DNA of 64,000 nucleotides, taken from an uncultured Candidatus Saccharibacteria bacterium (GTDB lineage Bacteria > Patescibacteriota > Minisyncoccia > Phycocordibacterales > CSBR16-119). Below, one piece after another: positions 47,731-63,965 of this stretch. Each line of letters begins with the position of its first letter. Position 1 is the first letter of the stretch. The DNA lies in the NCBI GenBank assembly GCA_964589975.1, contig CAZPVH010000004.1:10469-74468 (forward strand), written 5' to 3'. Made by a program: the position numbers and the translations under genes. The notes beneath the pieces were generated by a model. That model was not told the DNA's origin, did not search any database, and saw nothing but the letters and a program-made list of their open reading frames with translations.

Positions 47731-48246
47731 ATGAAAAAGACGATTTTCGGAATCATCGCCATACTGGCGATCGGTTGCACTACCGCCCCAACGGACGTAT
47801 TGCAGAGCAATGCTTTGCCAAAGACACCTGATGCTGATCAGGCTTCTCGTGTGATGGGCCCGCATGGTTGCGGTCCGCTCGGTAACGCCAAGGTGGAGCA
47901 GTATTCGGACGATGCCCGCATCATTGAGACCATTGGCTGTATGGCTCGCGCAGTGCCACTGAATGATAAATGGCATGACACAATCTATGTGAACGTTTGC
48001 GATATGTATTGGCCAGAAGATGAGGCGCTGCCTGATCTGAGTCCCGGCGCAACGATTCACATATGCGCCATGCGTTATGTGAAGGAAGACGAGAGAGGAC
48101 ATGAATTAGAAAGCAAGACGCCTTGGGAATACGTACTTTGGTACAGTATCCCGGGCCCGCTTGCTGCCACTGACAAGAAATTCGATATCAAGCTGGAGTC
48201 GGCCAAAAGCTTGGTGGCCCCGATCGATTCGATCACTTTCCGATGA
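47731..48246 (+). CDS. hypothetical lipoprotein
   Basis: Signal peptide with lipobox LAIGC; Cys-rich mature protein. Confidence 0.6.
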   Translation: MKKTIFGIIAILAIGCTTAPTDVLQSNALPKTPDADQASRVMGPHGCGPLGNAKVEQYSDDARIIETIGCMARAVPLNDKWHDTIYVNVCDMYWPEDEALPDLSPGATIHICAMRYVKEDERGHELESKTPWEYVLWYSIPGPLAATDKKFDIKLESAKSLVAPIDSITFR

Positions 48247-48290: not shown

Positions 48291-48499
48291 CGCTCCTAAA
48301 TACTTGACTCCACGAAACTTCTCATATAGTATGACCGTAACGCCGAAGTGAAGACTCCTGTCGTATGTCCCGCCAGTCTGGTGGGCTCAATTTTTCAGGA
48401 CTTTGCTCGGACTATTATAAAAATTAGGATGTTGACTGCTTTAATCCCTTTTGCGCGTTCTCGCGGACGGAGGTTAGGACAGCCAACCAATGTAATTAT

Positions 48500-49702
48500 A
48501 TGGCAGAAGTATTTGATAGAAGTAAGCCGCACGTAAACATTGGTACTATCGGTCACGTTGACCATGGTAAGACCACTCTTACGGCGTCTATTTTGCATGT
48601 TTTAGACATGAATAAGGCCGCTGGCTACGGAGCCCGCGTCGAGGGAATCGATGGTATTGATAACGCGCCTGAGGAAAAGGCTCGTGGTATTACTATCGCC
48701 CTTCACCACTCAGAGTACTGGACACCAAACAGGCACTACGCCCACATCGATGCCCCAGGACACGCTGACTACATTAAGAACATGATCACCGGTGCCGCTC
48801 AGATGGACGGCGCGATCCTCGTCGTGGCTGCTACAGACGGCGCCATGCCACAGACTCGCGAACACGTTCTCCTTGCAAAGCAGGTTGGTGTTCCAAAGAT
48901 GATTGTCTTCTTGAACAAAGTAGACATGGTTGATGACAAGGACATGGTTGATCTAGTCGAAGAAGAAATCCGAGAGCTTCTCACGAAGAACGGTTTCGAC
49001 GGCGCAAACACTCCGGTTATCAAGGGGTCAGGTCTCAAGGCTCTTGAAGCCAAGGATCCTTCTGATGAATGGGCTCAGAAAGTTTTGGAGCTCATGAACA
49101 CAGTTGATACATACATCCCGAATCCAGTTCGAGACACTGAGAAGCCATTCCTTATGCCTATCGAGGATATCTTCTCAATTGAAGGCCGCGGAACTGTTGT
49201 TACCGGTAAAATCGAACGAGGTATTGTAAAGGTTGGCGAGGACGTCGAGATTGTTGGTATCAAGCCAACAGCAAAGACGACTGTCACAGGAATTGAGATG
49301 TTCAACAAGCAGCTTTCAGAGGGTATGGCTGGCGACAACGCTGGTATCCTCCTCCGAGGCGCGAAGAAGGAAGACGTTCACCGAGGTCAGGTCCTCGCGA
49401 AAGTTGGTTCAGTTACTCCACACACTGATTTCGAGTGCGAAGTCTACATCTTGAAGAAAGAAGAAGGCGGCCGACACACTCCATTCTTCAAAGGCTACAA
49501 ACCTCAGTTCTACATCCGAACAACTGACGTCACTGGTGATGTTACTATCCCAGAGGGAACAGAGATGGTTATGCCTGGAGATACAGTTAAGCTAACGGTT
49601 TCTCTCGTAGCGCCGGTCGCTATGGAAGACCAGATGCGTTTCGCTATCCGTGAGGGTGGTAAGACTGTCGGTGCCGGAGTCGTTACAAAGATCATCAAAT
49701 AA
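48500..49702 (+). CDS. tuf: elongation factor Tu
   Basis: [25 protein letters not shown]-type motifs; 400 aa. Confidence 0.97.
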
Positions 49703-49727
49703 TACGACCCACTTATAGCTCATTAAT

Positions 49728-50078
49728 ATGGCAACCAAAAAAGCACAATCAAAAACAGCTAAAAAAACAGACTCTGTGATGTTACGGATCCGGGTCAGGG
49801 CTTACGAGAATAAGATTCTTGATAATTCTGTTAAACAGATTATCGATACCGCGCTTCGTCATGATGCAGGTATCCTCGGCCCTGTTCCGCTTCCAACAGA
49901 GATTAAGAAATACACGGTGAACGCCAGCCCTTTCGTTTACAAAGATGCGCGAGAACAATTCGAGATACGAACGCACAAGCGACTCATCGATATCTTGAAC
50001 CCATCTGCGAAGACGATAGAAGCACTCACGAACTTGAACCTCCCATCCGGAGTAGAGATCGACGTGAAGATGGTCTAA
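49728..50078 (+). CDS. rpsJ: 30S ribosomal protein S10
   Basis: [12 protein letters not shown]...GPVPLPT signature; has an N-terminal K-rich extension. Confidence 0.95.
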
Positions 50079-50143
50079 CTGTATAGCTACAATGCCCTTT
50101 TAAAAGAGACGCCTTGTCAGGCGCTCTTGGGTAACTTAACTAT

Positions 50144-50764
50144 ATGATCAAATTTATATTAGGAAAAAAACTGAATATGACGCAGTTCTTCGACGAAGAC
50201 GGCAAGGTTTTCCCTGCAACTCTCGTTGAGGCTGGCCCAGTCAAAGTCATCCAGGTGAAAACGCCGGAAACTGACGGATATAATGCTATCCAGTTTGGAT
50301 ACGGCGAGATAAAGGAGTCTCGGCTCAATAAATCAACCAAAGGCCATCTAAAAGGTCTCGGAAATTTCCGACACCTCAAAGAATATCGCCTCTCTGAGAC
50401 AAACGATATGAAGGTCGGCGATACGCTTGATGCGGCAACATTCACACCGGGAGATACCATCACAGTAGAAGGCGTCTCAAAAGGAAAAGGATTCCAGGGT
50501 GTTGTTAAGCGCCACGGTTTCAAGGGTGGACGACGCTCTCACGGCCAGAAGCACTCTGAGCGTGAAGCTGGAACCATTTCCGGAGGTGGCGGACGAGCCG
50601 GAGGCCGAGTGGCCAAGGGTATTCGCATGGCCGGCCGCATGGGCGGCGACATTGTCACGGTGAAGAACTTGAAGGTTCTCGCTATTGATGCAGAAAACAA
50701 TCAGATGCTCGTAAAGGGCGCGATCCCGGGTCGACGGGGGACATTGGTAACTATTACCGGCTAG
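50144..50764 (+). CDS. rplC: 50S ribosomal protein L3
   Basis: KLNMTQFFDEDGKV, FQGVVKRHGFKGG. Confidence 0.95.
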   Translation: MIKFILGKKLNMTQFFDEDGKVFPATLVEAGPVKVIQVKTPETDGYNAIQFGYGEIKESRLNKSTKGHLKGLGNFRHLKEYRLSETNDMKVGDTLDAATFTPGDTITVEGVSKGKGFQGVVKRHGFKGGRRSHGQKHSEREAGTISGGGGRAGGRVAKGIRMAGRMGGDIVTVKNLKVLAIDAENNQMLVKGAIPGRRGTLVTITG

Positions 50765-50775
50765 AGATTAGATAT

Positions 50776-50812
50776 GGATCCCGTTAGAGGCCGCGATCGC
50801 GGACGATAACGG
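50776..50812. repeat. short palindromic element related to family 2 (collapsed TIR-only copy)
   Basis: ATCCCGTTAGAGGCCGCGATCGCGGACGATAACGG shares the ATCCCGTTAG..CCGCG..TCGC arm with the element at 8796–8926. Confidence 0.35.
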
Positions 50813-50822
50813 AAAAAAATTT

Positions 50823-51560
50823 ATGAAAACACAAAACTCACAAAAGAATACTGAAGTTTCAGAAACCTCAAGATCGCGATCTGCCTCTAACGGGATGGAA
50901 GCAACCATCTACAACAAAGAAGGAAAAGCAGCAGGGAAAATAGAATTGCCAGCGGATATCTTTGGTCTCTCTTGGAATGCCGACTTGGTTCACCAGGTCA
51001 TGACTTCGATGAACCAGAACGCGCGAGCGAACACAGCTTCGACTAAAGATCGATCTGAGGTCTCGGGTACTGGCGCGAAGCCTTGGAAGCAGAAGGGAAC
51101 AGGCCGCGCGCGACATGGTTCACGCCGTTCTCCAATCTGGGTCAAAGGAGGCGTGGCTCATGGTCCGAATCCTGACCGAAACTACACAAAGAAGATCAAC
51201 AAGAAGATGAGCGCCAAAGCTCTCTTTACCGCAATATCAAAGAAGATGAAAGACGGAGAGGTTCTTTTCGTCGATACGCTCTCGATGGGAGAGATGAAAA
51301 CGAAGGAAGCTGCAAAGGCACTCATGGCTCTTGGTGGCATTACCGGCTTCGAGCGCCTCCAAGGCTCAAAGAAAGTTGTTGCGCACATCGCAACCGCGAA
51401 GCGCGAAGATAATACCGCAAAGAGCTTCAACAACATTCCGTTCGTCGAAGTTGGCGAGATCCGAAACATCAATCTTCTCGACGTCATCAATCATCGTTAC
51501 CTTATCATTGAAAGCCCAAAGGAGTCTGTCGAATTCCTGGCCTCTAAGCTAGCAAAATAA
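50823..51560 (+). CDS. rplD: 50S ribosomal protein L4
   Basis: PWKQKGTGRARHGS...GGVAHGP; N-terminal 24-aa extension. The start could be the internal ATG at about 50895. Confidence 0.92.
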   Translation: MKTQNSQKNTEVSETSRSRSASNGMEATIYNKEGKAAGKIELPADIFGLSWNADLVHQVMTSMNQNARANTASTKDRSEVSGTGAKPWKQKGTGRARHGSRRSPIWVKGGVAHGPNPDRNYTKKINKKMSAKALFTAISKKMKDGEVLFVDTLSMGEMKTKEAAKALMALGGITGFERLQGSKKVVAHIATAKREDNTAKSFNNIPFVEVGEIRNINLLDVINHRYLIIESPKESVEFLASKLAK

Positions 51561-51561
51561 T

Positions 51562-51969
51562 ATGGGAATCTTTTCTAAGAAGACAGACGAAAAAGAAGCA
51601 AAGAAGCCAGCGGCTAAAAAGGCGACAAAGAAGACAGAAGACAAGGTTGTCTCTGCAGAACCAAAAGCTTCGAAGCCTCTCAAGGCAGAGGCAATGGACT
51701 TTGCTGGAGTTCTCCGAAATCCTAGGATCACGGAAAAGGCGGCCCATATCTCTGACCAGAATGTTTACACTTTCGATGTTGCGCCAGGCGCTTCAAAGAT
51801 TGAGATTATGAAAGCCATCAAGGCCATCTACAAGCTCTCTCCGATAAAGGTTAACGTTTCCGCTATTCCGACCAAGCGCGTCTTCCGAGCGAAGCACATT
51901 GGCGTGAAGCGCGGTGGCCGAAAGGCTTACGTCTACCTCCGAAAGGGAGACAAGATAGAATTTATTTAA
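51562..51969 (+). CDS. rplW: 50S ribosomal protein L23
   Basis: L23 core (VLRNPRITEKA...YTFDV...) with a K/A-rich N-terminal extension. Confidence 0.92.
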   Translation: MGIFSKKTDEKEAKKPAAKKATKKTEDKVVSAEPKASKPLKAEAMDFAGVLRNPRITEKAAHISDQNVYTFDVAPGASKIEIMKAIKAIYKLSPIKVNVSAIPTKRVFRAKHIGVKRGGRKAYVYLRKGDKIEFI

Positions 51970-52022
51970 TTAATTAGCAGTCTGAGAACCATCACTGTTA
52001 CTCACTATAGATTGCAAATACC

Positions 52023-52877
52023 ATGAAGAAATATAAACCAACATCAGCAGGAAGGCGCGGCATGACGGTAGTAACCTACCGCGGCGTCCTTTCTAAATCA
52101 AAGCGCCATAAGCGCTTGTCAGTCGGCAAGAAGGGCCAGGGTGGCCGAAACAATCAGGGCCGCATCACCGTTCCTCACCAGGGCGGCGGCCACAAGCAGG
52201 CCTACCGACAGGTAGACTTCCTCTACAACAAGCAGGATATCCCGGCGAAATTCACGACGGTGGAATACGATCCGAATCGAAACGCTTTCATCTCACTCGC
52301 GGTTTACGCGGATGGAGAAAAGCGCTATGTCGTCTTCCCGAAAGGCGCAAAAATCGGTGACAAATTTATCGTCGGCAAGAACGTAGATGTGAAGACCGGA
52401 AATCGTCTGCCGCTCGTTGCGATTCCAGTCGGTACTTTTGTCTACAACGTTGAGATCAAAACGAACGGTGGCGCCAAGCTTGCTCGTTCTGCCGGATCAT
52501 TCCTCCAGGTCGTCGCTCACGACGAAGGCAAGACGTTCCTCAAGATGCCATCGACCGAAGTCCGCAAGGTTCCTTCAACTGCATGGGCATGCGTCGGCGA
52601 AGTTTCAAACTCTGAGTGGAAGCTTACAAACTTCGGTAAGGCTGGACGGTCTCGCTGGAAGGGCATTCGTCCGACTGTTCGCGGTTCTGCCATGAGCCCA
52701 GTCGATCACCCACACGGAGGAGGCGAGGGCCGACAGGGAATCGGTCTACGCCGAGGACCAAAGACTCGTCACGGAAAGCTTGCGTATGGCGTCAAAACCC
52801 GAAAGTCAAAGAAATACTCAAACAACCAGATCGTTACTCGCCGAAAGACGAAGCGAAATCAGCAGACGGTTGTCTAA
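52023..52877 (+). CDS. rplB: 50S ribosomal protein L2
   Basis: GRNNQGRITV...HQGGGHKQ..., SPVDHPHGGGEG. Confidence 0.96.
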   Translation: MKKYKPTSAGRRGMTVVTYRGVLSKSKRHKRLSVGKKGQGGRNNQGRITVPHQGGGHKQAYRQVDFLYNKQDIPAKFTTVEYDPNRNAFISLAVYADGEKRYVVFPKGAKIGDKFIVGKNVDVKTGNRLPLVAIPVGTFVYNVEIKTNGGAKLARSAGSFLQVVAHDEGKTFLKMPSTEVRKVPSTAWACVGEVSNSEWKLTNFGKAGRSRWKGIRPTVRGSAMSPVDHPHGGGEGRQGIGLRRGPKTRHGKLAYGVKTRKSKKYSNNQIVTRRKTKRNQQTVV

Positions 52878-52913
52878 TAGGTAACAGGAAACAGGTTACA
52901 GGTTACAGAAAAG

Positions 52914-52939
52914 AAAGCGCCCCGCAAGGGGCGTTTTCC
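52914..52939 (+). terminator. intrinsic terminator after rplB
   Basis: AAAGCGCCCCGCAAGGGGCGTTTTCC; its position interrupts the usual rplB-rpsS cotranscription. Confidence 0.65.
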
Positions 52940-52966
52940 CATTCCTACATTTGTTATAATCCTCAC

Positions 52967-53590
52967 ATGAAACTCAATTTCAAATATGACCAAGAGAAAG
53001 ATGTAGAGAACTTCATCAAATCTGCCAAATCCGTAAACAGCAAGAAGCCGACAGGCGTCATGCAGAAATATATTGATATTTACGGAGAGAGCTTTGAGAC
53101 AGAAAAACTAAACGAATTCATTACGGAAATGTTAAATGGTGTAGATGTAAACCAAATCATTTCAGATATTACGGCGAAGTGGTCAGCCATGGAAGATGAA
53201 TTCATCATGCGCTCAGAAAAGATCTTCGGCTGCAAATATCAGGTGGAGGAAGTGACGGTATTCCTTACGACGAATTCCAGATGTACATATAATACGCTTG
53301 AGAAATATTTTTTCGTGAGCATTCCACGGGCAGATGTAGCGCATGTGACGATCATGCATGAGCTTTTACATTTCTATACGAAAGAAGCATTCGAGGATTT
53401 CATACCAAAAGAAAAATACAATGATATAAAAGAAGCGCTTACGGTCTTACTAAACGTAGAATATGCTGACCTGATGGGGGATAAAAAAGACGAAGGATAT
53501 CCTCAGCATACGCAAATGCGCCAGAAAATCATCGACTTGTGGTTAGAAGGCAAAAATATGAAGGAAATAGTGGCTATTTTGGCCGGTTAA
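52967..53590 (+). CDS. hypothetical protein with HExxH motif (putative zinc-dependent hydrolase)
   Basis: 207 aa, VTIMHELLHFYTKEAF; TGtTATAAT-N6-ATG leaderless-type promoter. Confidence 0.5.
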   Translation: MKLNFKYDQEKDVENFIKSAKSVNSKKPTGVMQKYIDIYGESFETEKLNEFITEMLNGVDVNQIISDITAKWSAMEDEFIMRSEKIFGCKYQVEEVTVFLTTNSRCTYNTLEKYFFVSIPRADVAHVTIMHELLHFYTKEAFEDFIPKEKYNDIKEALTVLLNVEYADLMGDKKDEGYPQHTQMRQKIIDLWLEGKNMKEIVAILAG

Positions 53591-53595
53591 TTTTC

Positions 53596-53624
53596 TTGAC
53601 TTATACTTATAAATATGGTATGAT
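53596..53624 (+). promoter_or_regulatory. sigma70-like promoter TTGACT-N17-TATGAT with about 75-nt hairpin-containing leader
   Basis: Canonical spacing; the leader contains TTTGGTTGGTTG...CAACCAACTAAA inverted repeat. Confidence 0.4.
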
Positions 53625-53701
53625 ATAATTAGATAGGGGTTTGGTTGGTTGCTATAGGAGGTTTAATAAGCCTTTTATAACAACCAACTAAATCTTGAAA
53701 A

Positions 53702-53953
53702 ATGACTGGCTACGAAGTCTGCATGGTAGTCCTTGCCCTGTGTGTCGCTTTTCTTGGCCTCACTCTCTTTCTCTACATCAAGACAGGTGACGGTGGCAAC
53801 TGGGAATGGTTTTTTAGTAAGTCATACAGAAAGGAATTTGAATGGCAGAGGCACAAATGGGAGCGTTTTCGCTACCTTAGTCAGGACTATGAAGGTGAGG
53901 AAGTCCCTCCTACAGTAAAGAGCGCGAATGACGATAACGATGACTGCGACTAG
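53702..53953 (+). CDS. small membrane protein, Trp-rich with acidic tail
   Basis: 83 aa with one TM helix and C-terminal NDDNDDCD. Confidence 0.45.
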   Translation: MTGYEVCMVVLALCVAFLGLTLFLYIKTGDGGNWEWFFSKSYRKEFEWQRHKWERFRYLSQDYEGEEVPPTVKSANDDNDDCD

Positions 53954-53999
53954 GAAAGGTGGCCGGTTTGGGTGAATAACTCAGACCGGCTTTTCGTTT

Positions 54000-54491
54000 A
54001 TGTCATATGCTAAAATAATTACCATGATGACGCGACGCCAAAAAGTCTGGAGGAACAGAATCATTGTCTTTTTCATTTTTCCGCTAGCCGTAATCCTGCC
54101 TATTGTTTTGATAGACAAGAAGCCTGTAGATGAGAGAGGGGTTGAGGTCCCAGAAGGTCTTGAGCTAAATGAACAGGGGTTTTTGGTTGAAAAAACTGAT
54201 GGAGGTCCAACCGTGGAAGAAGAAACGGCTTGGGCTACTGCGGAGAATGGTTTACCAGCAGGTTGGGCTATTTGGTCTGATGAGATTAGCGGAAGGCCAG
54301 TAGAGAAGTATGCACCGGTAAAAGACATGCCAAGTTTTGTTGTAAAAATAGAGGCTACCATTACTGACAAACTTGTTCGTCCTTACGAGTGTGTTGGTCC
54401 AGATGATGTGGTGTTCTGTGTCGTAGGGAATAATCCTGACGTCCTGCGTTATTTTAAAGTCCTTAAGTACTATTACGAACCAGAAGAATAA
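54000..54491 (+). CDS. membrane-anchored hypothetical protein
   Basis: 163 aa with an N-terminal TM helix. Confidence 0.5.
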   Translation: MSYAKIITMMTRRQKVWRNRIIVFFIFPLAVILPIVLIDKKPVDERGVEVPEGLELNEQGFLVEKTDGGPTVEEETAWATAENGLPAGWAIWSDEISGRPVEKYAPVKDMPSFVVKIEATITDKLVRPYECVGPDDVVFCVVGNNPDVLRYFKVLKYYYEPEE

Positions 54492-54501
54492 AGACTCGGG
54501 G

Positions 54502-55005
54502 TTGACGGATACCTTGCTTGATGATAGAAAGGAATTAAACAAGCACTCAAACAAAAGAAGAATGAAGAAAGTATTAGGCATCGACTGCGGGAATGTGATC
54601 CTCTGTCAGATGAACGGCACTCCGGTACAGGGAAGTGTCGAAGCTATCCGGTCCATCGTAGATTCCGGAATGTTCCACGACATCTGGCTGGTGTCGAAGT
54701 GCGGCCCGCGCGTGCAATCGCTTACCCGCGAATGGCTCGCGAATCTTGATTTCTGGAAGCGAACCGGCATAAAGGGTAGCAATATCGAATTCTGCCTGAA
54801 GTTCTGGGAAAAGGGACCGATCTGCGAGCGCCTCGGCGTAACGCATTTCATCGATGATCGGCCGAAAGTACTGAACTGTCTGACTACGGTCGGAACGCTC
54901 TATGCTTTCAATCCTGAACCACGCTCATTGTCGGACTATCAGCGTCCGAACCCCATGATCGTTGTACGCTCATGGGATGAACTCTTGAAGGATCTATTCA
55001 AATAG
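54502..55005 (+). CDS. HAD-superfamily-like hydrolase (5'(3')-deoxyribonucleotidase-like)
   Basis: VLGIDCGNVI (degenerate motif I) and THFIDDRPKV (motif IV-like); low confidence. Confidence 0.4.
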   Translation: MTDTLLDDRKELNKHSNKRRMKKVLGIDCGNVILCQMNGTPVQGSVEAIRSIVDSGMFHDIWLVSKCGPRVQSLTREWLANLDFWKRTGIKGSNIEFCLKFWEKGPICERLGVTHFIDDRPKVLNCLTTVGTLYAFNPEPRSLSDYQRPNPMIVVRSWDELLKDLFK

Positions 55006-55013
55006 ATCAAAAA

Positions 55014-55040
55014 CCACCGGCCATTGGCCGGTTTTGTGTT
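55014..55040 (+). terminator. intrinsic terminator
   Basis: CCGGCCATTGGCCGG palindrome plus a T-rich tail. Confidence 0.6.
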
Positions 55041-55091
55041 TTCATTGCAATTAATTAAGCAGCAGAGTAGACTTTTTTCAAAACTGAACCA

Positions 55092-55514
55092 ATGGCAAAA
55101 AAGAAAACTCCACGCATGACATATTCGTTCATGGTAGAGGCAACTAAGACAGGCTTTTCGGCTCATTCACTGCAATACGGCGCTGTTGTCGCAACAACAG
55201 GCGATACATTGGAGCAGCTCCGAACAAATGCCGCCGCGGCGATCAATCTGACTGGTAAAGCCAAAGGAACGGTGTCTGCCTGGGATATTTGCCTCAGTAT
55301 GGATGTGCGAACCTTTTTCAAGGGTAACAGGATCCTGAAGGTAGGACCTCTGGCGAAGCGGATCAATATGGACTCTACGCTTCTCTCTCAGTATGTGAGC
55401 GGCAAGAAGAAACCATCCGAAGCACAGATTGCGAGGATTACAGCCGGTATCAGAGAAATAGCCACTGAACTCTCAACGATCTCGTTTCTGGTTCCACAGA
55501 AGAAGCCTGGGTAA
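55092..55514 (+). CDS. HicB-like antitoxin-fold protein with C-terminal XRE-type HTH (orphan; no hicA nearby)
   Basis: N-terminal UPF0150/HicB-like segment TYSFMVEATKTGFSAHSLQYGAVVATTGDTLEQL; C-terminal INMDSTLLSQYVSGKKKPSEAQIARI, an HTH. Confidence 0.45.
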   Translation: MAKKKTPRMTYSFMVEATKTGFSAHSLQYGAVVATTGDTLEQLRTNAAAAINLTGKAKGTVSAWDICLSMDVRTFFKGNRILKVGPLAKRINMDSTLLSQYVSGKKKPSEAQIARITAGIREIATELSTISFLVPQKKPG

Positions 55515-55530
55515 CAACCCGGGCTTTCTG

Positions 55531-55559
55531 TTTGACATATAAAACCCTATCTGCTAGTA
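55531..55559 (+). promoter_or_regulatory. sigma70-like promoter TTGACA-N17-TAGTAT restoring transcription of rpsS-...-rplE
   Basis: 25 of 29 nt identical to the promoter at 59922–59949 (shared AAAACCCTATCTGCTA core). Confidence 0.6.
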
Positions 55560-55565
55560 TCCTCT

Positions 55566-55660
55566 CATTCGGCCTTTTGGCCCGAATTTTTTTGAAAAGT
55601 AAATATTGAGATGGCGGTGAGCCCGAAGGCGACTTCGGAACCACGACCTAGCCATGTATA
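55566..55660 (+). promoter_or_regulatory. leader region with terminator-like hairpin plus T7 run and a 17-codon uORF (possible attenuator)
   Basis: ATTCGGCC-TTTT-GGCCCGAAT followed by TTTTTTT; downstream ATG GCG GTG AGC ... TAT TGA (MAVSPKATSEPRPSHVY) contains a second hairpin CCGAAG-GCGA-CTTCGG. Confidence 0.3.
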
Positions 55661-55677
55661 TTGATTTTCGTACTTAA

Positions 55678-56040
55678 ATGACACGATCACTTAAAAAAGG
55701 TCCATACGTAGATATAAAGCTATTGAAAAAAATAGCTGGAAAGAAGCCCCAAGCAACTGGGGTTATTAACACGTGGGCGCGCGCGTCCCAGATCGCTCCT
55801 GAAATGGTCGGGTTCGTTTTTGGCGTGCACAACGGCCGCGAGCACATCAAAGTCCTTGTTTCTGAAGACATGGTCGGACACAGGCTCGGCGAATTTTCTC
55901 CGACCCGTAAGTTCCACCGACATGGCGGTAAGCTAATGAAGGAGCTTGAGCAGAAGAAGAAAGAGGGCGAGGTCGCTGCCGCGCAGGCTGCAAAGGCTGC
56001 CGCTGACGCTGGGTCATCTAAGACGCCAGCTAAGAAATAA
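55678..56040 (+). CDS. rpsS: 30S ribosomal protein S19
   Basis: SLKKGPYVD...HNGREH...GHRLGEF, plus a K/A-rich C-terminal extension. Confidence 0.95.
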
Positions 56041-56042
56041 TT

Positions 56043-56495
56043 ATGAAAGCCATACTTAAAAACTATCGGCAGTCTCCACGGAAGGTTCGCCTGGTGGCTA
56101 GATCTGTGCGCGGAAAGACTCCGGCGCAGGCTCTCATGATTCTTGATTTCATGCCAAAGCGTGCTGCTGAACCAATAATGAAACTCATCGTTTCAGCTGT
56201 TGCGAATGCTAAAGTAAATAACAACGTAGACGTTGCCGACCTTATCATCAAAGGCATTGAGATAAATGGTGGTGTAACCCTCAAGCGTTTCCGACCGCGA
56301 GCACGAGGCTCTGCATACCGCATCAACAAACGCACCAGCCACATCGTGGTGACTTTGGACAAGAAGCCTGGAAAGGGTGGCGTTGTCGCCGAGGCTCCAA
56401 AGGCTGAGGCTAAAGTCGCGAAGCCAGCAGCAGCAAAAAAAGCTGCGCCGAAAAAGGCGGCGGTAAAGAAAGCGGTTAAGAAAAAGGCCGAATAA
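56043..56495 (+). CDS. rplV: 50S ribosomal protein L22
   Basis: L22 core plus an AKP/KKA-rich C-terminal extension. Confidence 0.93.
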   Translation: MKAILKNYRQSPRKVRLVARSVRGKTPAQALMILDFMPKRAAEPIMKLIVSAVANAKVNNNVDVADLIIKGIEINGGVTLKRFRPRARGSAYRINKRTSHIVVTLDKKPGKGGVVAEAPKAEAKVAKPAAAKKAAPKKAAVKKAVKKKAE

Positions 56496-56499
56496 TTTT

Positions 56500-57186
56500 A
56501 TGTCAAAGAAAGTAAACCCATATTCACATAGACTAGTAGTTCTCCGAGATTGGAAATCTCGCTGGTTTTCTACGGGCAAGAAATTCGCCGAGACTCTAAA
56601 GGCGGATATCCTCATCCGAGACTTCTTGAAGAAGAAGCTTCGCGCCGCTTACATTTCATCTGTTGAGATTGAGCGTTCTCGAAAGGGAGCTAGAATCATC
56701 ATCAAGACTTCACGACCTGGCGTCATCATTGGCCGCTCTGGCGAAGGCGCAAAGAAGCTCCGCGAGGATATATTGAAAATGATGAAGAAGGCTGGTCTTC
56801 CAGTTCTCGAGGAGATGAAGATCGATATTCAGGAAGTTACAAATCCTGACGCAGACGCTCAGATCGTTGCGTATTCTATTGTCGAAGGCCTAGAGAAGCG
56901 ACTTCCGTTCAAGCGTGTTATCAAAATGACTCTTGAAAAGGTCATGGCGTCGCGCGAGGTAAAGGGTGCTCGAATTGTCGTCTCCGGACGATTGAACGGC
57001 GCTGATATGGCTCGTCGAGAGGAAGTTAAGCAGGGCTCGATCCCTCTTCAGACTCTCCGCGCCGATGTCGACTTTGCTCGAGAGCGAGCAGTTCTCTCAT
57101 ACGGAACTCTCGGTATCCGCGTTTGGATTTACCGAGGAGAAGTCTTCGAGAAAGATCGCGCTAATTCAGCCGCTAGGAATAAATAA
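56500..57186 (+). CDS. rpsC: 30S ribosomal protein S3
   Basis: KH domain and the S3 C-terminal domain (GRLNGADMAR). Confidence 0.95.
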   Translation: MSKKVNPYSHRLVVLRDWKSRWFSTGKKFAETLKADILIRDFLKKKLRAAYISSVEIERSRKGARIIIKTSRPGVIIGRSGEGAKKLREDILKMMKKAGLPVLEEMKIDIQEVTNPDADAQIVAYSIVEGLEKRLPFKRVIKMTLEKVMASREVKGARIVVSGRLNGADMARREEVKQGSIPLQTLRADVDFARERAVLSYGTLGIRVWIYRGEVFEKDRANSAARNK

Positions 57187-57196
57187 CTAAACTTTT

Positions 57197-57622
57197 ATGC
57201 TTTTCCCTAAGAAAGTAAAATTTAGAAAGTGGCAGACAGGCCGGAAAAATCCGGAGAAATTGAAGCGCCCAGATACGCGCGGAAACTCTGTCGACTTCGG
57301 ATCATATGGTCTCAAAGCTGAGTCCATGGCTCGAGTCACTTCTGCTCAGATCGAGTCTGCTCGAAAGGCTATGGTTCGCCACCTCACAAAGGAGGGTAAG
57401 ACCTGGATTCGAATTTTCCCTGATCGTCCTATAACGGCCAAGGCCGCAGAGGTGGGTATGGGTAAGGGTAAAGGAGACCTGAAGGGCTACTGTTTCGAAG
57501 TTCACCCAGGCCGCATCATTTTCGAAGCTGACGGCGCTACACCTGAACTCTGCAAAGAAGCTCTCAGGAAAGCCGGAACGAAATTGCCGTGCAAGACCCG
57601 CGTAGTTGCGAGAAATAAATAA
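57197..57622 (+). CDS. rplP: 50S ribosomal protein L16
   Basis: KKVKFRKWQTGR..., RMGKGKG. Confidence 0.95.
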   Translation: MLFPKKVKFRKWQTGRKNPEKLKRPDTRGNSVDFGSYGLKAESMARVTSAQIESARKAMVRHLTKEGKTWIRIFPDRPITAKAAEVGMGKGKGDLKGYCFEVHPGRIIFEADGATPELCKEALRKAGTKLPCKTRVVARNK

Positions 57623-57631
57623 AACTGTAAT

Positions 57632-57817
57632 ATGGCAAATATTGACCTAAAATCAAAGAAAGTCGAGGATCTCGTAAAGGAGATGAATGAAGCGGCTCTG
57701 GATCTACAGAAATCCCGCTTTAACGTCGCCGGCACGAAGAGCCAGAGAGCGAACCCATCAAAGCTCAGGAAGACGATCGCTCGGATAAAGACCGAGCTTC
57801 GCTCCCGAAATAAATAA
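57632..57817 (+). CDS. rpmC: 50S ribosomal protein L29
   Basis: 61 aa, coiled-coil, conserved position. Confidence 0.9.
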   Translation: MANIDLKSKKVEDLVKEMNEAALDLQKSRFNVAGTKSQRANPSKLRKTIARIKTELRSRNK

Positions 57818-57822
57818 ACTAT

Positions 57823-58071
57823 ATGGAAACAACGAACAAAAAACCAAAGACACTCCAGGGTACAGTCGTGAAAGACGGTAATGATAAGACTGTGGTCGTT
57901 TCCGTGCCTCGCTTCGTTAAGCACCCTAAATACCAGAAGTTCTTCAAGAAGGACAAGCGCTACCAGGCTCACGATGAGGCTAACGCTTACAAAGTGGGGG
58001 ACAAGGTAGAGATGGTAGAAGGAAAGCCGAAGTCTAGGACCAAGCGCTTTACCGTAACTAAAAAGATTTAA
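57823..58071 (+). CDS. rpsQ: 30S ribosomal protein S17
   Basis: GTVVKDGNDKTVVV...KYQKFFKKDKRYQAHDE. Confidence 0.93.
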   Translation: METTNKKPKTLQGTVVKDGNDKTVVVSVPRFVKHPKYQKFFKKDKRYQAHDEANAYKVGDKVEMVEGKPKSRTKRFTVTKKI

Positions 58072-58074
58072 TTT

Positions 58075-58446
58075 ATGTTGCAAGACGGATCAAATGTAAA
58101 AATCGCGGATAACGGAGGCGGAACAGACGCCAGGATCTTCAAAGTTCTTGGCGGTTCTAAACGCCGCTACGCCGAAATCGGCGACTTGGTCGTGATCGCG
58201 GTCAAGAAGGCTCAGCCTCGAAAGATGATCAAGAAGAAAGACGTTCATCACGCTATCGTCGTCCGCCAGCAGAAGCCATTTCGGCGAAAGGACGGATCAT
58301 ATATCTCTTTTGACGACAATGCAGTGGTCATCATCGAAAAGGGCAAGTTTGAGCCAAAGGCTGGACGCATCTTCGGTCCTATTCCTAGAGAGATCGGCGA
58401 GCTCGGTTATCAGAAGATCGTGTCATTAGCCCCTGAGGTTCTATAA
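58075..58446 (+). CDS. rplN: 50S ribosomal protein L14
   Basis: MLQDGSNVKIADNGG...IGDLVVIAVKKA. Confidence 0.95.
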   Translation: MLQDGSNVKIADNGGGTDARIFKVLGGSKRRYAEIGDLVVIAVKKAQPRKMIKKKDVHHAIVVRQQKPFRRKDGSYISFDDNAVVIIEKGKFEPKAGRIFGPIPREIGELGYQKIVSLAPEVL

Positions 58447-58450
58447 TTTT

Positions 58451-58666
58451 ATGAAAATCAAGAAAGGCGACAATGTAAAAGTCCTCACGGGAGGAGACAA
58501 AGGAAAGACTGGCAAGGTCACGCAGGTTTTGCGCGAGGAAAACCGCGTCGTTGTCGAGGGCGTAAATGTCCGAAAGGTCCACAAGAAGAAGACAGCCGGA
58601 AAAGCTGGCTCAATCATCGAAGTCGCCATGCCAATCAACGCTTCTAATGTCGCCGTCGTAAAATAA
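58451..58666 (+). CDS. rplX: 50S ribosomal protein L24 (short form)
   Basis: KOW motif IKKGDNVKVLTGGDKGKTGKV; 71 aa. Confidence 0.88.
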   Translation: MKIKKGDNVKVLTGGDKGKTGKVTQVLREENRVVVEGVNVRKVHKKKTAGKAGSIIEVAMPINASNVAVVK

Positions 58667-58677
58667 TTTTTAATACC

Positions 58678-59217
58678 ATGGAAACAACAAAGCAAAAACT
58701 AGCAAAAGCCTACGAAGTTCTGAAGCCTAAGTTCGGCTACAAGAATTCTTTGTCATCCCCAAGACTTCTAAAGGTCGTTGTTTCTTCCGGCACAGGCTCA
58801 AAGATGAAGAACGACAAGAACAAGAATGAATTCATCGCCGGCCGCCTCGGTAAAATCACCGGCCAGAAACCATCGCCTCGCCAGGCTAAGCAGTCCATTG
58901 CTTCCTTTAAGCTCCGACAGGGAGAAGTTATCGGCCAGATGGTCACGCTTCGCGGCGAGCGCATGTATGCCTTCGTCGATAAGCTCATCAACATTGCTTT
59001 CCCCCGAACGAAAGACTTCCGCGGACTCGAGTCAAAGGGAATCGATGACGTTGGAAACCTGACAATCGGCATCAAAGAGCACACGATCTTCCCGGAAACA
59101 GGGGACGAAGAGCTCAAGGATGTCTTCAGCCTCGCCATCACTTTTGTCACTACTGCGAAAAATAAAGAAGAAGCAAAAGCGTTCTTCGATTATCTCGGAA
59201 TCCCGTTTAAGAAATAA
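58678..59217 (+). CDS. rplE: 50S ribosomal protein L5
   Basis: PRLLKVVVSSGTG...FKLRQGEVIG...GIKEHTIFPE. Confidence 0.95.
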   Translation: METTKQKLAKAYEVLKPKFGYKNSLSSPRLLKVVVSSGTGSKMKNDKNKNEFIAGRLGKITGQKPSPRQAKQSIASFKLRQGEVIGQMVTLRGERMYAFVDKLINIAFPRTKDFRGLESKGIDDVGNLTIGIKEHTIFPETGDEELKDVFSLAITFVTTAKNKEEAKAFFDYLGIPFKK

Positions 59218-59229
59218 ATTTAATGAAAC

Positions 59230-59265
59230 AAAAGCTCTCGTTTGACGAGGGCTTTTGTTTTTTGG
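59230..59265 (+). terminator. intrinsic terminator after rplE
   Basis: AGCTCTCGT-TTG-ACGAGGGCT hairpin plus a T-rich run; breaks the usual rplE-rpsN linkage. Confidence 0.6.
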
Positions 59266-59634
59266 GCGATTGGTGTAAGGTGGGGCAAAACTTTATCCAT
59301 GGAAAAGCTACAAGAAGTCCTTGAACACCTGACTCGGATCAAAGAAGTTCGTCGCCGCAACAGTCCCTTTGGTCTTCCACCCGGAGAGTCTCCCAAATTC
59401 TTTAGCAACGAAGAAGGGCAACTGAATGAAAGGTTGGAAAGACATATCGGTGCTCTAGCCGAACATCTAAGTGACTTTGTAGCCCTGCGGAACCAGCTTG
59501 GCAGAGAATCATATGAAAAAGTTCTTGCCGATACGAAGAAGACCTTGGTTAACCTTGTCTGTGACGCTATTTGGATGGTCCATGGCTATGATGTGACAGC
59601 CGAAGAGATCTTTGCCGCCATTCCAGAGAAATGA
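59242..59634 (+). CDS. hypothetical protein inserted between rplE and rpsN
   Basis: 130 aa (or 111 aa from the ATG at 59301); helical, no confident family assignment. Confidence 0.45.
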   Translation: MTRAFVFWAIGVRWGKTLSMEKLQEVLEHLTRIKEVRRRNSPFGLPPGESPKFFSNEEGQLNERLERHIGALAEHLSDFVALRNQLGRESYEKVLADTKKTLVNLVCDAIWMVHGYDVTAEEIFAAIPEK

Positions 59635-59646
59635 AGCCCGCAGCAG

Positions 59647-59680
59647 AAAGCCCGTTCGCGGGCTTTCTTGTTTTTAGAAA
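59647..59680 (+). terminator. intrinsic terminator
   Basis: AAAGCCCG-TTCG-CGGGCTTT, a perfect 8-bp stem with a UUCG loop, plus CTTGTTTTT. Confidence 0.7.
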
Positions 59681-59685
59681 TAAGT

Positions 59686-59895
59686 GTGATAATCTCTCTC
59701 CTAGAAGCTTCAACAACTCTGCCCTGAATAAACCTACCAAAACAGGAAATAAAAGGGATAACAGAGGGCGCAAGGATGTGCCATGAGTTGGAAGGTTTAG
59801 ACCCTTCGGACTCTACGTCCAAACAGTTCTCTAGGTACAAATTGTAGCTTGGGCTTTAGGGGCGCTTTTGGGCGCCCCTTCTCTTTTTCCTTGCC
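59686..59895 (+). ncRNA. candidate small RNA (about 200 nt) with its own extended -10 promoter and terminator
   Basis: TGTGATAAT at 59685–59693; C-UUCG-G tetraloop hairpin; terminal hairpin GGGGCGC-TTTTGG-GCGCCCC followed by TTCTCTTTTT; no ORF longer than 30 codons. Confidence 0.25.
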
Positions 59896-59921
59896 CGTCC
59901 GTAGACTCTGGCGTAGGCGGG

Positions 59922-59949
59922 TTGACATAAAATCCCTATCTGCTAATAT
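59922..59949 (+). promoter_or_regulatory. sigma70-like promoter TTGACA-N16-TAATAT restoring transcription of rpsN-...-secY
   Basis: Near-duplicate of the promoter at 55531–55559. Confidence 0.6.
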
Positions 59950-60038
59950 GCCCTTGTCCCGTTCAATCCCCGTATCTCCTTCTTGGCCCAAAGGACCCGG
60001 AAGCAAATATAGGCGATATTAGCGGGGCGTTAAAAAAT

Positions 60039-60308
60039 ATGGCTAAAAAATCAGTTACAGCGCGAAATAACAAGCGCATCAAACTTCATGCAAAGTACGC
60101 CAAAAAGAGGGCGGAACTTAAGGCTGCCGGAGACTACGAAGGCCTCCAGAAGCTTCCAAAGAACTCCTCTCCATCACGCCTGAAGAACCGATGCGGTATC
60201 ACCAGCCGTCCGCGAGGCTATATGCGTGATTTTGGACTTTCTCGCATCAAGTTCCGAGAGCTCGCGTCAGTCGGCGAGATTCCGGGCGTAAGGAAGTCAT
60301 CCTGGTAA
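60039..60308 (+). CDS. rpsN: 30S ribosomal protein S14 (long, non-zinc type)
   Basis: 89 aa, [28 protein letters not shown]. Confidence 0.93.
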
Positions 60309-60314
60309 TTCTAT

Positions 60315-60704
60315 ATGGATAAGATTGCAAACATGCTCATAATGCTGAAGAACGCGGGAATTGCCGGCAAGCCTCTTGTTGTTGTTCCTCATTCAGCTCT
60401 AAAGGAAGCCATCGGACAGTGCCTAGTGAAGGGTAAATTTGTCGAGAAGGTTTCAAAGAAGACTCTCGAAGGAAACAAGGCGGTTCTTGAAATCACTCTC
60501 CTCCGCACAGGACGCGAGCCTCGTATTACACAGGTAGAGCGAATCTCAAAGCCTTCAAAGCGAGTGTATATCAAAGCAAAAGACATTAAGCCTGTCCGCC
60601 AGGGATACGGCATGATGGTGCTTTCGACTCCGAAAGGCGTTTTGATCGCGGACGATGCTCGCAAAGAATTGGTCGGCGGTGAAGCTCTATTCCGAATCTG
60701 GTAA
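60315..60704 (+). CDS. rpsH: 30S ribosomal protein S8
   Basis: DKIANMLIMLKNA...GMMVLSTPKGV. Confidence 0.95.
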   Translation: MDKIANMLIMLKNAGIAGKPLVVVPHSALKEAIGQCLVKGKFVEKVSKKTLEGNKAVLEITLLRTGREPRITQVERISKPSKRVYIKAKDIKPVRQGYGMMVLSTPKGVLIADDARKELVGGEALFRIW

Positions 60705-60714
60705 TCATAAATAT

Positions 60715-61251
60715 ATGTCACGAGTTGGTAAACAAATCCTAAAGGTTCCCGCTGGCGTCGAGCTATCACTCGCCGGAGGCAATTTGACTGTCAAAGGTCC
60801 GAAAGCTACTCTCGCGCGCCCATTCAAAACAAACATCATTGATATAAAGATCGATAATGGCGAAGTTTCTTTTGTTCCAAAGAACGAAGAGAATTCCACG
60901 AAGGCTCTCTGGGGAACATACGCTTCTCATGTTCGAAACATGATCAAAGGCGTTACTGACGGATACGAAAAGAAGCTCGAACTCGAAGGAGTCGGCTTCA
61001 AGTCTGAAGTTCAGGGTACGAACCTAAAGTTCGCACTCGGCTTCTCTCATCCGGTTATCATGCCGATCCCAGAAGGCCTCAAAGTTACTGCGGAAAAGAA
61101 CCTCATCACGGTGAGCGGAGCGGACAAGGAGCTTGTCGGCGAATTCAGCGCAAATGTCCGAGGCAAGAAGCCGCCTGAGCCGTACAAAGGGAAGGGTATC
61201 CATTACCAGGGCGAATACATCCGCCGCAAGCAGGGCAAGAAAGCCGTCTAA
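60715..61251 (+). CDS. rplF: 50S ribosomal protein L6
   Basis: MSRVGKQILKVPAGV...; start set at the internal ATG after the rpsH stop, because the ORF-track start at 60655 overlaps rpsH. Confidence 0.93.
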   Translation: MSRVGKQILKVPAGVELSLAGGNLTVKGPKATLARPFKTNIIDIKIDNGEVSFVPKNEENSTKALWGTYASHVRNMIKGVTDGYEKKLELEGVGFKSEVQGTNLKFALGFSHPVIMPIPEGLKVTAEKNLITVSGADKELVGEFSANVRGKKPPEPYKGKGIHYQGEYIRRKQGKKAV

Positions 61252-61260
61252 AATAATTTT

Positions 61261-61611
61261 ATGCAAGCTAGAAAACAAAGGCAATCAAGGCGAGACAGAA
61301 TCAAGCGAAAGATCCGCTCAAAGGTGGCTGGTTCGGCTATGCGACCACGTCTTTCGGTGTACCGCTCAAACAAGAATATCTACGCTCAGATCATCAACGA
61401 TGAGACTGGCACGACTATTGTTTCCGCTTCTGATATCAAGACAAAGACTGGTACCAAGCGAGACAGGGCTATCGAGGTTGGTAAAATTATTGCCAAGCTC
61501 GCAAAGGATGCTGGCGTGACCGCGATCGTTTTCGACAGGAACGGCTTTAATTACACAGGTCGGATCAAGCTTTTGGCAGACAGCGCCCGCGAGGGAGGTT
61601 TAACCTTTTAA
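61261..61611 (+). CDS. rplR: 50S ribosomal protein L18
   Basis: RPRLSVYRSNKNIYAQIIND... Confidence 0.93.
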   Translation: MQARKQRQSRRDRIKRKIRSKVAGSAMRPRLSVYRSNKNIYAQIINDETGTTIVSASDIKTKTGTKRDRAIEVGKIIAKLAKDAGVTAIVFDRNGFNYTGRIKLLADSAREGGLTF

Positions 61612-61619
61612 TCAATTAT

Positions 61620-62225: not shown

Positions 62226-62234
62226 TAAAATTTT

Positions 62235-62684
62235 ATGCAAACTAATAATCTAGTTCGAAAAACGAAGAACAAGAAGACAAAGCTCATCGGCCGAGGCGGC
62301 AAGAGGGGCAAGACTTCTGGACGCGGAACAAAAGGACAGTGGGCTCACGGCAGCCACGGCGTCCGTCCTGAGATGCGAGACATCGTCAAGAAGTTCCCGA
62401 AACTCCGCGGACACGGAAAGAACCGCGGACGCACGGTTAATTCTTCTGTCGTTCGCGAGACTCCAATCAATCTTTCCACGCTTGAAGAGAACTTCAAAGC
62501 AGGGGACAAGGTCACCTTGGACGCGCTACTTGAGAAGAAGCTCGTGAATAAATCCGGTGGCAAGAATCCGTCAGTAAAGATCTTGGCCGGTGGTGAAATA
62601 TCTAAGAAGCTTTCAGTCATCGGCTTCAGCATGTCGGCCGCAGCGCGAGCCGCTATCGAAAAAGCCGGCGGCGAGGTAAAATAA
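62235..62684 (+). CDS. rplO: 50S ribosomal protein L15
   Basis: GRGGKRGKTSGRGTKGQ...; directly follows rpsE with no L30 gene between them. Confidence 0.93.
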   Translation: MQTNNLVRKTKNKKTKLIGRGGKRGKTSGRGTKGQWAHGSHGVRPEMRDIVKKFPKLRGHGKNRGRTVNSSVVRETPINLSTLEENFKAGDKVTLDALLEKKLVNKSGGKNPSVKILAGGEISKKLSVIGFSMSAAARAAIEKAGGEVK

Positions 62685-62688
62685 ACCC

Positions 62689-63957: not shown

Positions 63958-63965
63958 AATATGAA

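Follow-up and report, generated by a model that had tools for sequence, protein, structure and literature searches.

In the 64-kb stretch of DNA analysed here (64,000 nucleotides of contig CAZPVH010000004.1 from an uncultured bacterium of the Patescibacteria; hereafter the window), the ribosomal protein genes rplB and rpsS of the S10 operon are separated by five non-ribosomal genes, c1 to c5. We compared this junction with the corresponding junctions of related genomes and found a clade-wide re-partition of the S10–spc gene cluster at three fixed junctions, together with a previously undescribed leader RNA in front of rpsS. The rplB–rpsS junction is probably an old boundary between separately promoted ribosomal operons, which holds genes specific to each relative along with the conserved rpsS leader.

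On the plus strand of the window, tuf (48500–49702), rpsJ, rplC, rplD, rplW and rplB are followed by the five open reading frames (ORFs) and then by rpsS, rplV, rpsC, rplP, rpmC, rpsQ, rplN, rplX and rplE, which ends at 59217. A second interruption of 821 bp (59218–60038) separates rplE from rpsN, rpsH, rplF, rplR, rpsE, rplO and secY. The rplB–rpsS distance is 2800 bp compared with 16 bp in Escherichia coli, and besides the five ORFs the gap contains terminator-like hairpins (four) and promoter-like sites (three). An earlier note on this DNA, made from the sequence alone, had described the rplB–rpsS linkage as split by five non-ribosomal genes, and the ORF map of the 2.8-kb gap agrees with that description. 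The rplB product itself is 84–89% identical to those of its nearest relatives.

A scan with the rplB protein, taking one genome per species, yielded 80 loci, all from Patescibacteria of the Paceibacteria type and labelled Nomurabacteria, Kaiserbacteria, Campbellbacteria or Paceibacterota. Every consecutive junction of ribosomal genes was measured in these loci. Both rplB and rpsS are present in 49 of them, and the distance between the two genes exceeds 100 bp in 48 and 500 bp in 34 (median 973 bp, range 95–5613 bp); in 11 further loci there is no rpsS within 3 kb or more of rplB. The rplE–rpsN junction is longer than 100 bp in 25 and longer than 500 bp in 14 of the 30 loci with both genes, and the corresponding counts for rpsJ–rplC are 29 and 20 of 62. 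All of the remaining junctions have medians of 5–18 bp. The strict promoter pattern TTGACN-N16-18-TANNNT, searched within 200 nt 5′ of genes, shows the same distribution: 37 of 49 loci have it in front of rpsS and 23 of 30 have it in front of rpsN, and there are zero cases upstream of rplV, rpsC, rplN, rplE, rplB and rplD in the same loci. Thus, the gap statistics and the promoter census describe a cluster that is organised as separate units, namely tuf/rpsJ to rplB, rpsS to rplE, and rpsN onward. The break at rplB–rpsS is the rule in the clade, and rpsS is predicted to head its own transcription unit throughout. The earlier note had regarded an insertion into this one operon as unusual, and this view does not hold, given a long gap in 48 of 49 related loci.

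The gene order is the same as in the S10 and spc operons of E. coli (rpsJ to rpsQ and rplN to rpmJ, respectively), and most junctions are as tight as in that organism. However, the rpsQ–rplN boundary, which measures 164 bp in E. coli, is fused here (3 bp), and new promoter-bearing boundaries lie at rplB–rpsS and rplE–rpsN, with a third at rpsJ–rplC in many relatives. The length of non-ribosomal genes at these boundaries ranges from 0 to over 8 kb. A contiguous S10 operon lacks internal promoters and terminators between rplB and rpsS, whereas the window has a terminator-like hairpin after rplB and a predicted promoter of the sigma-70 type before rpsS. Our literature search returned no relevant description of a split S10 operon in bacteria of the candidate phyla radiation (CPR)/Patescibacteria, nor of an rpsS leader.

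The promoter in front of rpsS, which the earlier note had called fresh, is not: 17 other sequences, including locus L003, carry orthologues of this promoter, of the 5′ hairpin and of the RNA that follows. These 17 related leaders come from L002–L006, L008, L081 and L082 and, by way of a pattern scan of metagenomes, from nine further contigs; the 60 matches of that scan comprised 51 chance matches in GC-rich coding DNA and nine true leaders. All share one layout before rpsS, consisting of a −35 element TTGAC(A/T), a 17-nt spacer, a −10 element TAGTAT, a hairpin 7–8 nt later, a run of T5–7, an A-rich spacer and then the leader core. The core is composed of GAUGGCGGUGA, a variable hairpin and ACACGACCUAGCCAUG, with the rpsS ATG located 13–57 nt further 3′.

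The 5′-proximal hairpin, noted before as terminator-like, is indeed present as a GC-rich stem followed by U7, and its free energy is −8.2 kcal/mol. All 17 of the 17 related leaders have a counterpart of this hairpin, and a U-run of at least five follows it in 16. Two types of stem, UUCGGCC/GGCCyGAA and UCCAG/CUGGA, differ from each other by compensatory changes. Since a hairpin with a U-run is also found in distant Nomurabacteria-like leaders, it is an older element than the core. In those loci (L011–L049), a promoter, a short AGCUC-N4-6-GAGCU hairpin and a U-run stand directly before the rpsS ATG.

A covariance model of the core gave 18 true matches in 1.15 Mb, one per locus, and each of them sits between the conserved promoter and rpsS, 13–57 nt before the ATG. 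The model has three helices: P1 (AUGGC/GCCAU), P1b (GGU/ACC) and P2, the variable hairpin. Because P1 and P1b do not vary, they carry no information on covariation. P2 shows compensatory changes in all six pairs, with 92% of cells paired compared with at most 54% in slid controls. It scores 0.226 for covariation, compared with 0.105 for the shuffled controls, and none of 500 shuffles reached the observed value. A search with the model for diverged copies in L009–L080 found none, so that only the near clade carries the core, and no family of Rfam 15 matches the leader region. On this comparative evidence the core of the rpsS leader is a conserved structured RNA that had not been described before.

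In contrast to its borders, the interior of the gap differs from relative to relative. Clustering of 205 proteins (199 gap ORFs of relatives and six window proteins) left 127 as singletons. A Pfam census of the gaps recovered peptidoglycan-binding domains, DUF2103, diacylglycerol kinase, M3 and M16 peptidases, TrmB and purC, and further PhoH, PIN, YafQ/RelB and sigma-70. Among the near relatives, the cassette genes are shared singly and in varying combinations, not as one block. The window holds c1, c2, c3, c4 and c5 in this order. L082 carries c1 (58% identity), a 138-aa gene, c3 (59%), family-A, a 157-aa gene and gene Y; L081 carries family-A, purC, c1 (67%) and a c2-like transmembrane ORF of 73 aa; and L149 carries c3 (63%), gene Y and c5 (76%). 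The gap of L002 has three other genes and purC, those of L004 and L005 have family-A only, and that of L006 has one unrelated gene. Lastly, L003 represents an empty site, in which a 219-bp gap contains only the rplB terminator, the rpsS promoter and the leader. The upstream synteny of recJ, rplT, infC and tuf is kept in the same relatives; thus, variation is greater in the gap than around it. The earlier note had proposed a synteny check, with gap content shared by all relatives and conserved in sequence as the outcome that would speak for an old feature of the lineage; the relatives do not share such content, and a recent single insertion does not fit either, because c1, c3 and c5 are common to some relatives at 58–76% identity. 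Gap proteins are not enriched in membrane or secreted proteins (29% versus 44% in the control, p = 0.11).

Two side observations concern similar regions. Kaiserbacteria-like loci (L054, L058–L063, L069 and L073–L078) have a recurrent family of 12 small proteins of ~105–160 aa on the reverse strand of the rplB–rpsS gap. In the window, a 171-aa lipoprotein-like ORF (47731–48246) lies between infC and tuf and has no counterpart in the near relatives, which keep rplT, infC and tuf; infC–tuf is another variable slot.

The features of the two gaps are listed in Table 1.

Table 1. Annotated features of the rplB–rpsS and rplE–rpsN gaps, with the genes that flank the former. Positions refer to the window.
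Feature	Position	Strand	Description and evidence
rplB (L2)	52023..52877	+	ORF and translation; last gene of unit tuf-rpsJ-rplC-rplD-rplW-rplB
Bidirectional terminator-like hairpin after rplB	52914..52937	.	AAAG-CGCCCC-GCAA-GGGGCG-TTTT; sequence, scan
Putative extended −10 for c1	52952..52960	+	TGtTATAAT; read from sequence
c1	52967..53590	+	207 aa, HExxH protein; ORF, homologues, AlphaFold2
Promoter-like site for c2	53596..53624	+	TTGACT-N17-TATGAT with upstream TG; scan
c2	53702..53953	+	83 aa, single-pass membrane protein, no assignable family
Predicted terminator after c2	53961..53991	+	13-bp stem, then TTTCGTTT; scan
c3	54000..54491	+	163 aa, N-terminal transmembrane anchor, rare family
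c4	54562..55005	+	147 aa from ATG 54562 (167 aa from TTG 54502), capless HAD-fold protein
Bidirectional terminator-like hairpin after c4	55016..55032	.	Scan
c5	55092..55514	+	140 aa (132 aa from ATG 55116), orphan HicB-like domain and XRE-type HTH
Terminator-like hairpin after c5	55505..55533	+	GCCTGGG-TAACAA-CCCGGGC, then TTTCTGTTT; read from sequence
Predicted rpsS promoter	55532..55560	+	TTGACA-N17-(TGc)TAGTAT; scan, orthologous in 17 related leaders
5′-proximal hairpin of rpsS leader	55568..55593	+	UUCGGCC/GGCCCGAA and U7; starts at about +1/+2 of predicted rpsS transcript
Conserved structured RNA core of rpsS leader	55609..55656	+	Covariance model, 56 bits in the window
rpsS (S19)	55678..56040	+	First gene of unit rpsS-rplV-rpsC-rplP-rpmC-rpsQ-rplN-rplX-rplE
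Predicted terminator after rplE	59231–59265
ORF in rplE–rpsN gap	59299–59634		111 aa, without family
Two terminator-like hairpins in rplE–rpsN gap	59645–59668 and 59858–59879
Predicted promoter before rpsN	59922–59949		Spacer near-identical to that of rpsS promoter
Second conserved structured leader (predicted), upstream of rpsN (60039)	~59965–60026		RNAalifold, window and five relatives

At the left border, the hairpin after rplB, which the earlier note called a strong terminator, is flanked by an A-tract and a T-tract, and an equivalent GC hairpin lies directly 3′ of rplB in L003–L006. A short tandem repeat, ACAGGTTACAGGTTACAG, occupies 52880–52910, directly 3′ of the rplB stop codon. The extended −10 element of c1 ends 7 nt 5′ of the ATG, so the c1 messenger RNA (mRNA) is probably leaderless. 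The claim that each gene has its own promoter or terminator stands in part: each gene is bounded by such signals, but c3, which starts 9 nt past the stem of the c2 terminator, lacks a separate promoter. In the 86 nt before c5 there is a terminator only. We recognised no Shine–Dalgarno sequence in any gene of the cluster (48500–63957); the upstream regions are A/T-rich, for example aataatttt-ATG.

The alternative that the earlier note suggests is a recent single insertion of a foreign accessory or defence cassette into an intact S10 operon, with a new rpsS promoter and with c1 and c5 as a regulatory pair. Some observations favour it: none of the five proteins had a tblastn match in the 80 loci first examined, c1 has a low G+C content (0.388 versus a window mean of 0.473), the five genes are heterogeneous in composition, and the closest homologues of c5 outside its own lineage are Bacteroidota HicB proteins. 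However, relatives have orthologues of the promoter and leader, even at the empty site, the break is clade-wide, and c1, c3 and c5 recur at the same junction in L081, L082 and L149 in differing combinations. There are also no traces of a mobile element. No integrase, recombinase or transposase was matched among c1–c5 in Pfam, NCBIfam or PHROGs, and no integrase or transposase is among the 25 families shown in the gap-protein census of the relatives. The repeats that were found are of chance level (12–19 nt) and none lies at the borders of the cassette, and the window has no transfer RNA (tRNA) genes. We consider such an insertion quite unlikely, and the evidence has already largely refuted it.

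The proposed pairing of c1 with c5 is also not supported by the proteins themselves. The two genes are three genes apart and occur independently, with c1 present without c5 in L081, L082 and other contexts, and a PADLOC search of the cassette proteins gave best E values of 0.0011 to 0.024, none of them credible. The arrangement thus differs from an ImmA/IrrE–XRE pair, and since no member of the c1 family matches any Pfam domain, there is no match to ImmA/IrrE (Peptidase_M78) either. Searches of Pfam, NCBIfam, PHROGs and PADLOC with c1–c5 gave nothing above the curated thresholds, and sequence and profile searches of the Protein Data Bank (PDB) with c1 and c5 were not useful apart from one match, to 2yzt. 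The first descriptions of the single proteins fare better than the pair. For example, the HExxH motif of c1 is invariant across 39 sequences, c2 and c3 both have N-terminal transmembrane segments, c4 has the fold and motifs of a haloacid dehalogenase (HAD)-like protein, and c5 has HicB-named homologues and no HicA partner here.

The c1 family has at least 141 homologues of ~210 aa, mainly in CPR bacteria. H131, E132 and H135 are invariant across the aligned sequences, as are the motif MHELxHFYT and E156, 21 residues on, which by the gluzincin criterion would be the third zinc ligand. The structure check proposed earlier was informative to different degrees for c1 and c4, with a confident HAD fold for c4 and weak matches only for c1. 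The AlphaFold2 model of c1 has a predicted local distance difference test (pLDDT) score of 97, and its Foldseek matches in the PDB are weak (E of at least 0.18, TM scores of 0.24–0.38); nearly all are gluzincin metallopeptidases, with M1 aminopeptidases, selecase, abylysin and ArdC at the top. The predicted fold may be gluzincin-like, and the family is large and uncharacterised. We found no consistent neighbourhood for this family, whose genes come after aminoacyl-tRNA synthetase genes, before a 2′-5′ RNA ligase gene in a context with RecG, or next to ftsW in a context with GrpB. The c2-like ORF of L081 likewise follows c1, and the C-terminal domain of c3 has 16 cluster representatives among 1.84 billion proteins.

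The c4 protein, which probably starts at the ATG, was also modelled with a pLDDT of 97. Its best Foldseek match is the deoxyribonucleotidase-like structure 3bwv (E = 2.3e-5, TM score 0.71), followed by GmhB (4pnh) and KdsC/YrbI. The model shares the Rossmannoid HAD fold and the motifs of capless (C0) HAD phosphatases of the 5′(3′)-deoxyribonucleotidase-like, GmhB and KdsC types, with D8 (motif I), S45 (II), K84 (III) and D98-D99 (IV). Unlike those enzymes, c4 has an invariant glycine (G10) two positions after the invariant D8, in place of the general acid/base aspartate, so that motif I does not read DxD, and it matches no Pfam or NCBIfam family. The sole notable family match is phrog_420 (function uncharacterised; E = 3.8e-6). 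The gene has a G+C content of 0.64 at third codon positions, and homologues with 66–75% identity lie at unrelated loci in other genomes.

The c5 protein probably shares the architecture of HicB in HicAB modules, with an N-terminal HicB-like domain and a C-terminal XRE-type helix–turn–helix (HTH). The assignment rests on the family: c5 alone reaches HTH_31 at E = 0.006, below the Pfam cutoff, whereas five of 21 family members match HicB_lk_antitox (best E = 0.0011) and 12 of 21 match HTH_3, the family profile matches PDB 2yzt at E = 0.003, and the source databases label the homologues HicB. In Algoriphagus, a homologue of ~41% identity directly follows a HicA gene (3 nt). Unlike in HicAB modules, there is no adjacent HicA for c5 here or for its homologue directly before rpsS in L149; a tblastn search with HicA of Algoriphagus gave no match close to the cassette and no significant one in the window.

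Alternatively, the gap genes could be tied to the ribosome or to translation (assembly, maturation or quality control) and be placed for co-regulation with ribosomal proteins. This idea draws on the position of c1 directly after rplB in two genomes, on sites elsewhere where the start of a c1-family gene abuts the stop of an aminoacyl-tRNA synthetase gene or overlaps a 2′-5′ RNA ligase gene (near RecG), and on the persistence of a location between ribosomal operons in the relatives. Against this, gap contents are almost wholly different between relatives, most gap proteins being singletons, the genes are insulated by terminators and promoters of their own, the FtsW/GrpB and RecG contexts of the c1 family are unrelated to translation, and the c4 homologues are located elsewhere. 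We therefore regard a ribosomal role of these genes as improbable.

The function of the rpsS leader was considered in comparison with known leaders. The S10 leader of E. coli, bound by L4, is an autoregulatory ribosomal-protein leader (PMC7247131, PMC3616713), and the nearest published counterpart known to us, a candidate L2 leader, precedes rplB-rpsS-rplV-rpsC in Alphaproteobacteria (PMC7247131). Like these leaders, the rpsS element lies in the 5′ untranslated region of a multi-gene operon, has invariant strands around a covarying hairpin and shares its leader with a terminator-like hairpin. Unlike them, it differs in sequence and structure and has no match in Rfam, the terminator-like hairpin precedes the conserved core with no overlap, and the element fronts rpsS, a gene that normally lacks a leader. 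We infer that the core binds a protein in the manner of ribosomal leaders, and its ligand would be a ribosomal protein encoded in the same operon, which would thereby be autoregulated. The 5′ hairpin and the U-run after it could act as an attenuator or as a stabiliser of the mRNA 5′ end; we identified no conserved antiterminator pairing for it.

The 17-codon upstream ORF of the earlier note begins at the invariant AUG of the core (overlapping 55609–55656 in the window), and it would permit a different mechanism, classical leader-peptide attenuation, in which translation of a short ORF (MAV…) controls the hairpin. ATG-GCG-GTG is invariant, so that a short ORF always begins there, and the leader does hold a terminator-like hairpin. 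However, the hairpin and U-run lie upstream of the ORF, whose translation therefore cannot control the hairpin. The ORF is present in the window but is not conserved as such: it has between 5 and 26 codons in different sequences, the reading frame of the invariant 3′ segment may be any of the three, and the variable middle segment changes in the base-pair-compensating manner described above. It therefore cannot be a classical leader peptide. This mechanism is very unlikely.

Resemblance of the leader to ribosomal RNA (rRNA) was examined with E. coli 16S, 23S and 5S rRNA as the reference. The 3′ strand GACCUAGCCAUG is identical at 11 of 12 positions to 23S nt 684–695 (the H32/H33 junction), a value reached in 35 of 500 shuffles, and the combined query was not significant. 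The longer alignment of CGGUGAUCUAGCCAUG at 23S nt 676–695 was also within chance by shuffling. Another candidate for the mimicked site, 16S helix 11 with S17, was not supported by alignment to the E. coli rRNAs.

A second leader precedes rpsN. RNAalifold predicted 19 pairs in it, nine with compensatory changes, and the sequence is conserved around AAUCC…CUCCUU-hairpin-AAG…GAUAUU, with no match in Rfam. S8 or S14 may bind this leader. The rplE–rpsN gap in which it lies also varies in size in relatives, from 138 to 2409 bp. Other leaders were observed as well. In Kaiserbacteria-like L047, L059, L061–L063, L071, L073 and L080, a long stem enclosing …GGCCGUUAC… lies before rpsS. The tuf unit of the window (48304–48385) has TTGACT-N17-TAGTAT and, 37 nt later, a terminator-like hairpin with a T-run (48369–48385), which resembles the rpsS leader.

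That the interruption is an assembly or binning chimera is extremely unlikely: seven of 80 related contigs stop within 700 bp after rplB (L001, L025, L027, L052, L064, L068 and L079), which marks the region as hard to assemble, but the Logan contig L148, which comes from an independent assembly, matches the window with 100% identity over 53553–64000 (c2 through secY), c1 sits on the same 96.5-kb NCBI contig (P0001), and dozens of unrelated assemblies show the same architecture. Those contig ends suggest that related assemblies often break at the rplB–rpsS junction. Exact-sequence contig look-ups for c1 and the 140-aa c5 returned no record, and a homologue search later recovered the source and the independent contig.

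Chromosomal integration hotspots, or genomic islets between core genes, are a general concept, and the gap resembles them in that variable accessory genes lie between conserved core genes and an empty site exists. Unlike hotspots, it shows no integrase, transposase, tRNA gene or flanking repeats, its genes turn over singly, and the flanking core genes are the halves of a normally single operon. Several points weigh against an old, conserved boundary with an exchangeable interior. First, many of the relatives carry generic and thus uncertain organism labels. Second, the compared relatives are distant (~77–86% amino-acid identity over ribosomal proteins), so that differing gap contents could reflect ordinary long-term intergenic flux, and a crude comparison of amino-acid identities between the upstream and downstream blocks gave no incongruence that would indicate recombination in the flanks. 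Given this distance and the missing recombination signal, we describe the gap as a permissive inter-operon slot and not as a proven high-rate hotspot. Third, the promoters and terminators are consensus matches from scans of modest specificity, with 28 terminators where shuffling leads one to expect 17.1, and 20 promoters where it leads one to expect 13.4. Numbers so modestly above expectation make single sites weak evidence, and conservation is the stronger evidence. Fourth, the T-run of the rplB terminator has four T only, and read-through into the cassette and rpsS is possible. Lastly, the likeness of the leader to 23S rRNA does not exceed chance.

With these points taken into account, we favour the old inter-operon boundary. 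The comparisons show directly the conserved architecture, the mosaic of gap genes, the folds assigned to the proteins and the covariation of the leader RNA. The S10–spc cluster would consist of three separately promoted units, tuf/rpsJ to rplB, rpsS to rplE, and rpsN onward, which makes the rplB–rpsS junction an old inter-operon spacer. Its left limit would be the conserved bidirectional rplB terminator, and its right limit the conserved rpsS promoter with the 5′-terminal hairpin, U-run and structured leader. Because neither ribosomal unit would be transcribed across the spacer, genes could settle there without polar effects, and the contents do differ in all relatives examined. The five unrelated accessory genes would form about four small transcription units (c1; c2; c3 with c4; c5), gained and kept one by one and not as a single mobile cassette, by ordinary recombination and deletion with no dedicated element. 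Among them, c1 and c3 would be older residents that are common to relatives, c4 a small HAD-fold enzyme found at other loci elsewhere, and c5 a HicB-type antitoxin-like regulator left after the loss of its HicA partner.

A broader joint reading is possible but tentative, and we would not rely on it. In it, the Paceibacteria rebuilt the cluster into three units, each new one with a lineage-specific autoregulatory leader: the rpsS leader, the rpsN leader and others that differ between the Kaiserbacteria-like and the Nomurabacteria-like subclade. In front of rpsS, the leader would mimic rRNA and bind a product of the operon that it heads, for instance L22, S17, S19 or L5. The insulated gaps would be a main landing site for accessory genes, with the near-universal ribosomal genes as homology arms for gap exchange in bacteria that have few mobile elements.

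The S10–spc cluster is a standard example of conserved gene order and a backbone of ribosomal-protein phylogenies, and contigs of uncultured bacteria are binned by it. When a whole clade has this cluster split at three fixed junctions, with variable cargo that can exceed 8 kb, contig assembly is affected, and so is the proper use of synteny-based markers. The five gap genes appear to be ordinary accessory genes, among which c1 represents a large, confidently foldable and unannotated HExxH family that may merit a study of its own. The split is also a natural experiment in the re-partitioning of operon architecture. To our knowledge, essentially nothing is known about the regulation of ribosomal protein synthesis in CPR bacteria, and the rpsS and rpsN leaders would rank among the first candidate cis-regulatory RNAs for this process.

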